NCBI RefSeq assembly: GCF_002854065.1
Contig: NZ_CP024147.1
Length of the DNA stretch: 64,000 bases
Direction: 5' to 3' (one strand)
Source: Escherichia coli
GTDB lineage: Bacteria > Pseudomonadota > Gammaproteobacteria > Enterobacterales > Enterobacteriaceae
The notes below the pieces were generated by a model. That model had not been told where the DNA came from, did no database searches, and saw nothing but the letters and a program-made list of their open reading frames with translations. The position numbers and the translations under genes are program-made. This document shows, one piece after another, positions 10,874-11,542 of this stretch (its first letter is position 1; every line of letters starts with the position of its first letter).

Positions 10874-11542
10874 CTATTTTTTCCCTGAAGCGGAAAACAT
10901 TACTACAGTACCTTGAACCTTGGTTTTAACATTCTCGAAATGCTCTGAGAGTATATGTGTTAAGCCTTCTTCAGAATCTTTTGTGTTTGAAAAGATGCCT
11001 TTCTGATTGTAAATGCGCATCAGTTTTTGACCGAAGCTATTGTGCACAACTCCATCGCCAAGAATTGTGGCTCCGTATAGAGTTCCATCGTCAGTTAAGG
11101 CCTGCGCCGCATTGCGTATTACACAGCTTTTTGTAGATATATTTCCAGGCAGGCAGTGAAGAAGGTAAAACATGGAAATGGAATCAAATTGACCATGTAA
11201 CGCCGCGGGATAAGGTTCAAAAACATCATGGCTAATTTTATGTTTAATTTTTGATTCCCCAGCCCTTGTAGATGCCGCGTTCAGGCTAGCTTCGTTCAAA
11301 TCCATTAAAGATATCAGACTACTCTCAGGTACGTGAGTAAGGTAAAACCCAGTTCCAACACCAATATCCAGATGGTTGTTACCTAAATGTTCCAGAAAGT
11401 GTGGAAGAAGGTGTTCCTTTGTAGGACATCCCCATGCAAGCCGATTTGATACTCCCAAAACCCACCAGTCATAAAGCTTTAGGGTAAGTGGTGTGTAAAT
11501 TTTAGCCCCATCATCTGTGTTTTTTTTCATTAATTTCACCAT
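10874..11542 (-). CDS. ybcY: Class I SAM-dependent methyltransferase (YbcY-like, 222 aa, intact)
   Basis: Motif I LDIGVGTGFY and overall class I MTase architecture; position after tfa as ybcY in DLP12. Confidence 0.75.
   Translation of the reverse strand: MVKLMKKNTDDGAKIYTPLTLKLYDWWVLGVSNRLAWGCPTKEHLLPHFLEHLGNNHLDIGVGTGFYLTHVPESSLISLMDLNEASLNAASTRAGESKIKHKISHDVFEPYPAALHGQFDSISMFYLLHCLPGNISTKSCVIRNAAQALTDDGTLYGATILGDGVVHNSFGQKLMRIYNQKGIFSNTKDSEEGLTHILSEHFENVKTKVQGTVVMFSASGKK

Follow-up and report, generated by a model that had tools for sequence, protein, structure and literature searches.

Is the methyltransferase gene next to tfa in this stretch of Escherichia coli DNA a working gene, and, if so, does its product act on DNA or on something else? 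The gene in question is an open reading frame (ORF) on the minus strand of a 64,000-nucleotide stretch of contig NZ_CP024147.1 (assembly GCF_002854065.1), the whole of which we call the window, and it corresponds to the K-12 gene ybcY. We consider it likely that the ORF encodes a functional cytoplasmic small-molecule S-adenosylmethionine (SAM) methyltransferase, and that the gene is a self-transcribed, H-NS-bound piece of cargo (a ‘moron’) of DLP12-type lambdoid phages and of their remnants at argU. The gene, its annotation and the pseudogene status of the K-12 copy are already known and present in public databases, where the intact allele is the standard one. In the searchable literature we found ybcY/c0651 in gene lists only and no functional study of it.

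An intact gene at the ybcY locus

In the ORF listing of the window, the gene forms an uninterrupted minus-strand frame of 222 codons that starts with ATG and contains no internal stop. Its translation is the same protein as RefSeq WP_000239881.1, gp26 of phage ev243 (YP_009910063.1) and the PHROG 2132 entry (‘class I SAM-dependent methyltransferase’), with 100% identity and no difference between them. The earlier note, which was made by a model from the letters of the window, had described an intact 222-residue class I SAM-dependent methyltransferase with the motif LDIGVGTG, and this description holds: translation reveals neither a frameshift nor a stop in the window copy, the motif is found at residues 58–65, and the protein exceeds the Pfam gathering thresholds of Methyltransf_12 (37.6 bits against a cut-off of 30, E 3.8e-9) and likewise those of Methyltransf_23, 25 and 11. 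The match to the PHROG 2132 profile is stronger still, with an E-value of 7.9e-157. The ratio of nonsynonymous to synonymous substitution rates (dN/dS) is 0.093 relative to the CFT073 allele, 0.19 relative to a Citrobacter allele and 0.12 relative to an Enterobacter orthologue, with an overall range of about 0.09–0.22. Because of the Pfam and PHROG matches and the low dN/dS values, we regard the frame as a real gene and not a chance ORF; judged by these ratios, it is subject to purifying selection.

Translation most probably begins at codon 5, likewise an ATG (M5, window position 11530), which would yield a protein of 218 residues, because three lines of comparison all indicate M5: the orthologues are mostly 218 residues long and their alignment begins there, the PHROG 2132 profile match begins at residue 5, and in CFT073 ACG replaces the first ATG and the annotated coding sequence (CDS) comprises 218 residues. 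A GGTGA sequence lies 5 nt upstream of the M5 ATG.

The statement in the earlier note that the K-12 counterpart is a pseudogene agrees with the annotation of NC_000913.3 (ybcY, b0562) and with our alignment. The two copies occupy the same locus, with the synteny tfaD-ybcY-tfaX-appY-ompT and 99% nucleotide identity, but K-12 has lost the conserved ATG through a 2-bp deletion at codon 5, whereas the window allele is intact; the window reads TTAATGAAAAAAAAC where K-12 reads TTAATAAAAAAAC. Translated from M1, the K-12 gene yields MVKLIKKHR* and stops after nine codons, and it additionally differs from the window protein by K14R and F125S. If M5 is the real start, the deletion would remove the G of the true start codon. 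The pig isolate a15 carries a 1-bp deletion of the same start-ATG G (its locus 2105-2205), where the Prokaryotic Genome Annotation Pipeline calls an ‘intact’ 219-residue CDS starting at ATT, a call that looks dubious.

Distribution in E. coli and its phages

The gene was matched in 3831 of 5426 complete E. coli genomes (~70%), with one to four copies per genome, nearly all of them chromosomal, and the 90% protein cluster of the window protein comprises 6589 member sequences. At 99–100% protein identity it is also carried in 14 phage records, including ev243, 2G7b, the PhiR series, Kati and Turner. Given the identical RefSeq protein, these genome and cluster counts and the active phages, the intact allele is the norm in E. 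coli and the K-12 copy the exception. The phage copies occupy the same cargo arm beside tail-fibre assembly genes and, as judged from gene content, the active temperate phages ev243 and Kati bear cargo resembling the right arm of DLP12. The argU-linked remnant of CFT073 consists of an integrase fragment, a tfa fragment, the intact methyltransferase gene and ompT. Separately, we observed that the cargo arm of ev243 includes an annotated ompT, that the one of Kati includes unnamed ORFs of ompT size (954 bp) and appY size (750 bp), and that Kati has a DNA invertase beside its tail-fibre genes.

Candidate expression signals and a possible moron character of the gene

A published RpoD genomic systematic evolution of ligands by exponential enrichment (SELEX) table lists the motif TTGATT-17-TATAAC for ybcY, and in K-12 both RpoD holoenzyme and H-NS bind the ybcY/tfaX spacer (PMC3946193). 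This motif is retained in the window with one single-nucleotide difference in its spacer and ends exactly at the first ATG. It may serve as an active promoter in the window strain, and a transcript from it would begin inside ATGGTGA, fitting the M5 start. A consensus scan returned three promoter-like sites against 2.0 expected, so that the alternative site TTAACC-16-CATAAT among them counts as weak evidence by itself.

Downstream, 8 nt beyond the stop codon, positions 10833-10866 are predicted to form a strong hairpin, with a folding energy of -25.6 kcal/mol (z -4.6) on the minus strand and of -32.2 kcal/mol (z -4.5) on the plus strand, where a T6 run follows. This hairpin is probably a terminator or a stabiliser. 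It was not called by the terminator scan, which has a loop limit of 8, perhaps because its perfect 10-bp stem encloses 13 nt.

The gene has a GC content of 40.7% (35% at third codon positions), compared to 51% for the window. This deviant GC content would fit a candidate moron, as would an orientation opposite to the late genes, carriage by active phages, the promoter motif, the K-12 RpoD/H-NS SELEX site and the downstream hairpin.

The same H-NS binding suggests silencing and could be taken to favor a different explanation, in which the gene is a passenger without function, carried along by a prophage remnant and so far spared from decay. Reports of a phenotype are lacking, loss of the start codon had no obvious cost in K-12 or in at least one other lineage, and the whole region was deleted in an ethanol-evolved K-12 line (PMC4559166). 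We nevertheless consider such a passenger quite unlikely, given the dN/dS values of ~0.09–0.2, the intactness of the gene both in the minimal CFT073 remnant and in active phages, and the conservation of the family, whose catalytic-site residues are invariant, across Enterobacterales, Pseudomonas and fungi alike.

A class I methyltransferase outside the named families

The window protein is a class I (Rossmann-fold) SAM-dependent methyltransferase, as evident from motif I, the acidic residue of strand 2, the fold and hidden Markov model scores above threshold. The (E/D)xGxGxG glycine loop is present after strand 1, and conservation at its residues G61, G63 and G65 reaches at least 90% among the 93 homologues over which it was computed; D81, at the end of the predicted strand 76–81 (strand 2), where class I enzymes have the acidic residue that binds the ribose of SAM, is invariant in this set, and D105-V106 follows strand 3. 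The AlphaFold model is confident (mean predicted local distance difference test score 93, predicted template modelling score 0.88) and shows the seven-stranded class I fold, capped by helices at the N-terminus and with a lid at the C-terminus. Two family-specific motifs, YDxWVL...W.C in the N-terminal helix and LLHCLPG after strand 4, match those of no named family. The protein is devoid of a transmembrane segment and has an isoelectric point of 7.2.

Among the matches listed in our sequence, profile and fold searches, to which all statements on neighbours refer, small-molecule and lipid enzymes prevail. Sequence and profile matches in the PDB include NodS, CysG/BelI, ToxA/XrdM, JHAMT, phosphatidylethanolamine (PE) N-methyltransferase and UbiG, with RsmC matching weakly, and the top 50 Foldseek matches are small-molecule, lipid or natural-product methyltransferases or unassigned structural-genomics proteins. 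Apart from a few weak matches to rRNA, tRNA and cap methyltransferases, the matches listed are to small-molecule or lipid methyltransferases, while the BFVD viral fold library returned generic methyltransferase matches only. Compared with small-molecule class I enzymes of solved structure, namely JHAMT (7ec0), PE N-methyltransferase (8ys9), BelI/CysG (9fce/9g0k), DhpI (3ou2), NodS (3ofj), Coq5 (4obw) and UbiG (4kdr), the window protein shows 11–21% identity and template modelling scores of 0.55–0.67, and none of them stands out.

NCBIfam holds no model specific to the ybcY family, whose members weakly match the BioC, CpaM, UbiE, NodS, RquA, UbiG and PmtA models. The window protein itself has no match to the UbiE/MenG, UbiG, BioC, NodS or RquA equivalog models at E <= 0.001. 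The named equivalogs PmtA, RquA, CpaM, BioC, UbiE and NodS were rejected as identities for the protein, with scores far under the curated cut-offs. By these scores, the protein is a member of the class I SAM methyltransferase superfamily and of none of the named functional subfamilies tested, and at the family level its affinity is, as far as such comparisons can tell, clearly with small-molecule methyltransferases. The earlier note had named clear homology to a small-molecule methyltransferase of known function as a refutation; no such homology emerged, and no characterised member of the ybcY family was found.

The presence of PE N-methyltransferase among these matches bears on a second alternative, namely that the enzyme acts in lysogenic conversion of the envelope, for example through PmtA-like N-methylation of PE or through methylation of a lipopolysaccharide or O-antigen precursor, which would alter the surface or block superinfection. 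Such an envelope role is unlikely and not specifically supported: the PmtA equivalog scores the window protein at 15.6 bits (E 0.01) against a cut-off of 390, the match to PE methyltransferase is no better than those to dozens of unrelated small-molecule methyltransferases, and the fungal and Pseudomonas gene contexts do not point to lipid metabolism. Methylated PE or phosphatidylcholine is not known from E. coli strains with an intact gene, which likewise counts against it.

DNA and RNA as substrates

The earlier note had labelled the gene an orphan methyltransferase, a label that implies a DNA methyltransferase lacking its restriction enzyme. No restriction-enzyme neighbour was found in the ten contexts examined (the window, phages and homologue loci), and an action on DNA is not borne out, since DNA methyltransferase motifs are absent and the neighbours listed in the searches are nearly all small-molecule or lipid methyltransferases. 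Regular-expression searches of the protein found neither motif IV of DNA N6-adenine and N4-cytosine methyltransferases, (D/N/S)PP(Y/F/W), the equivalent loop reading LLHCLPG, nor the PCQ motif of C5-cytosine enzymes; the single ‘ENV’ present, at residue 203, belongs to the C-terminal sheet region and is in the wrong context. The predicted structure contains no extra domain such as the target-recognition domain of DNA methyltransferases, and profile, PADLOC and fold searches revealed no similarity to restriction–modification methylases. The reading as a DNA methyltransferase was therefore rejected, given that the motif search, PADLOC, the fold searches and the neighbours were all unsupportive.

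More broadly, the protein might be a nucleic-acid methyltransferase, be it an orphan DNA methyltransferase acting against restriction or in epigenetic regulation, or an rRNA or tRNA methyltransferase. The gene travels on phages, among whose genes orphan DNA methyltransferases are frequent; PADLOC returned a mad2 match, albeit a weak one (E 0.0033), and weak similarity to RsmC, CmoA, Trm9, METTL6 and cap methyltransferases occurs low in the match lists. The missing DNA methyltransferase motifs, the lack of a transmembrane segment, the isoelectric point and the ten contexts free of a restriction enzyme all speak against a DNA substrate. We consider a nucleic-acid substrate very unlikely.

The wider family and its gene contexts

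The wider family comprises about 1300 representatives at 50% clustering. Homologues in Salmonella, Enterobacter, Yersinia, Erwinia and Pseudomonas/Janthinobacterium are stand-alone, monocistronic chromosomal genes in differing contexts, and those of Citrobacter and of another Salmonella lineage are island or prophage cargo. Homologues with 38–44% identity over nearly their full length are found in Ascomycetes, where they sit among genes for cytochromes P450, monooxygenases, aldehyde dehydrogenases and acyltransferases, including one P450 fusion. Whereas these fungal homologues have neighbours of the secondary-metabolism type, the E. coli gene has no surrounding biosynthetic cluster. The fungal gene context speaks for a role of the family in small-molecule tailoring.

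Two more specific assignments were considered and dropped. First, ev243, Enterobacter and Erwinia each have an alpha/beta hydrolase in the vicinity of the gene, which raised the idea of a methyltransferase and esterase pair (a methyl-ester cycle); the hydrolases of ev243 and Erwinia are unrelated (BLASTP E 0.87), and those of ev243 and Enterobacter differ greatly in size (494 and 276 residues). Second, ‘vrtF’ is the automatic name of a Lachnellula suecica protein with 41% identity, at most a putative link to the VrtF/AdaD-type fungal polyketide O-methyltransferases: a search seeded with this protein did not return authentic VrtF, which is a Penicillium O-methyltransferase (PMC4294208). The literature searched on adaD/vrtF held nothing relevant.

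A proposed mode of action

In our preferred reading, that of a small-molecule methyltransferase borne as a moron, the gene would be transcribed independently and counter to the late operon. Its sigma-70 promoter would be the AT-rich one, bound by H-NS, that directly adjoins the ORF, with H-NS damping the expression of the moron. Translation from M5 would yield a soluble cytoplasmic enzyme, which would use SAM to methylate not DNA but either a small metabolite, probably a hydrophobic or acidic one, or the head group of a lipid; the methyl group would go to an O, C or N atom. The acceptor pocket is predicted to lie between three conserved elements, namely Y16, Y24, D25, W37 and C39 of the N-terminal helix, H129-C130-x-P132-G133 of the loop that follows strand 4, and N179, F184, N186 and D189 of the lid. 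The invariant H129 is a likely candidate for the general base. The beneficiary would be the lysogen, through detoxification or modification of a metabolite, and such a benefit would account for the presence of an intact gene in heavily decayed remnants.

Several points weigh against this reading. The evidence for the promoter comes from in vitro SELEX with K-12, and the putative roles of H129 and of the pocket residues derive from conservation and secondary-structure position. The substrate class is deduced from resemblance only, because no family member is characterised. Moreover, a conserved operon partner was not found in any lineage (Salmonella, Enterobacter, Yersinia, Erwinia, Pseudomonas or Janthinobacterium), so that the context points to no pathway.

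Genomic surroundings

The sequence around the gene is collinear with the right arm of K-12 DLP12 (nohD, tfaD, ybcY, tfaX, appY, ompT, envY, ybcH, nfrA), with two insertion sequence (IS) interruptions. Positions 10381-11852 are 98.9% identical to K-12, the flanks are collinear and the gene occupies the syntenic slot between tfaD and tfaX/appY. By this gene order, it is situated in a DLP12-type prophage remnant at argU. Its position on the opposite strand just after tfa, as reported in the earlier note, was confirmed, the two genes being convergent. The coordinates of all features are compiled in Table 1.

Table 1. Features of the ybcY locus, in window coordinates
Feature	Position	Strand	Basis
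Maximal ORF, 222 aa, as in RefSeq WP_000239881.1	10874..11542	-	ORF listing and identical translation
Most probable methyltransferase CDS, 218 aa from the M5 ATG, plus TAG stop	10874..11530	-	Orthologues, PHROG 2132, CFT073, GGTGA
Motif I, SAM-binding glycine loop LDIGVGTG	11348..11371	-	Sequence; conservation of G61, G63, G65
ATG (M5) followed by A8 run; site of the K-12 2-bp and a15 1-bp deletions	11520..11530	-	Alignments
Promoter-like TTGATT-17-TATAAC abutting the upstream ATG	11543..11571	-	RpoD genomic-SELEX motif for ybcY (PMC3946193)
Alternative promoter-like TTAACC-16-CATAAT, extended -10 TG	11571..11598	-	Consensus scan, weak alone
Strong hairpin in the gap where tfa and the methyltransferase gene converge	10833..10866		Folding energy
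Tail-fibre assembly gene, tfaD-like, 194 aa, convergent neighbour 54 bp away	10235..10819	+	ORF listing, annotation comparison
Remnant of a tfaX-type tail-fibre assembly gene, carrying an internal stop and divergent from the methyltransferase gene	11599..11848	+	Sequence comparison

The tfaX-type remnant appears in the ORF listing as a short ORF (11599..11784). Its 3' part (11692-11848) and the 3' end of tfa (10643-10799) form an 85% direct repeat on either side of the methyltransferase cassette, and because of this bracketing, recombination within tfa suggests itself as the means by which the cassette may move among lambdoid phages.

Antisense to the 3' end of the methyltransferase gene lies an overlapping 45-residue ORF (10792-10929, +), which RefSeq names ‘hypothetical protein’ or sometimes ‘nucleocapsid protein’ and which is probably a spurious call. 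Further upstream on the plus strand, a chimeric ORF of 274 residues (9034-9858) joins a NohD-like N-terminal part (terminase small subunit) to an Ig-like domain segment. Homology of the NohD-like part to K-12 stops at 9459, and the annotation of related genomes has two genes at this place, a truncated terminase and an Ig-like one; on this comparison, the chimeric ORF represents a junction left by a deletion in the decayed prophage.

On the other side of the cassette, a 768-bp IS1 (11853-12620, with InsA/InsB ORFs at 11908..12183 and 12102..12605) separates the tfaX remnant from appY. The K-12 site lacks this element, and a 9-bp overlap in K-12 coordinates fits a target-site duplication. Collinearity with K-12 is broken a second time by a 1329-bp insert (15112-16440, junctions 15111/16441) located 23–29 nt inside the ompT coding sequence, whose ORFs of 136 and 301 residues correspond to a transposase annotated as IS2-family (IS3-like) in related genomes. 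ompT appears to be disrupted by this insert and, if this holds, the strain would be without OmpT protease. Among complete genomes, none was found to have both insertions.

Significance

With its presence in ~70% of complete genomes, its purifying selection and its retention in minimal remnants, the gene ranks among the most widespread E. coli genes carried as prophage cargo. That enzymes of the ybcY type have stayed out of view is probably owed to the dead copy in K-12, the reference strain. Functional work on ybcY therefore needs a non-K-12 strain or a repaired 2-bp deletion, and should consider a small-molecule substrate and not a DNA motif. It is possible, although doubtful at present, that ybcY is a true lysogenic-conversion gene, that is, a metabolic moron whose product would confer a fitness benefit by methylating a specific small molecule such as a toxic acid or phenol, a signalling metabolite or an antibacterial compound. 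If true, this would explain the survival of the intact gene beside ompT in remnants across so many E. coli genomes, and it would define a function for a methyltransferase family common to Proteobacteria and fungi.
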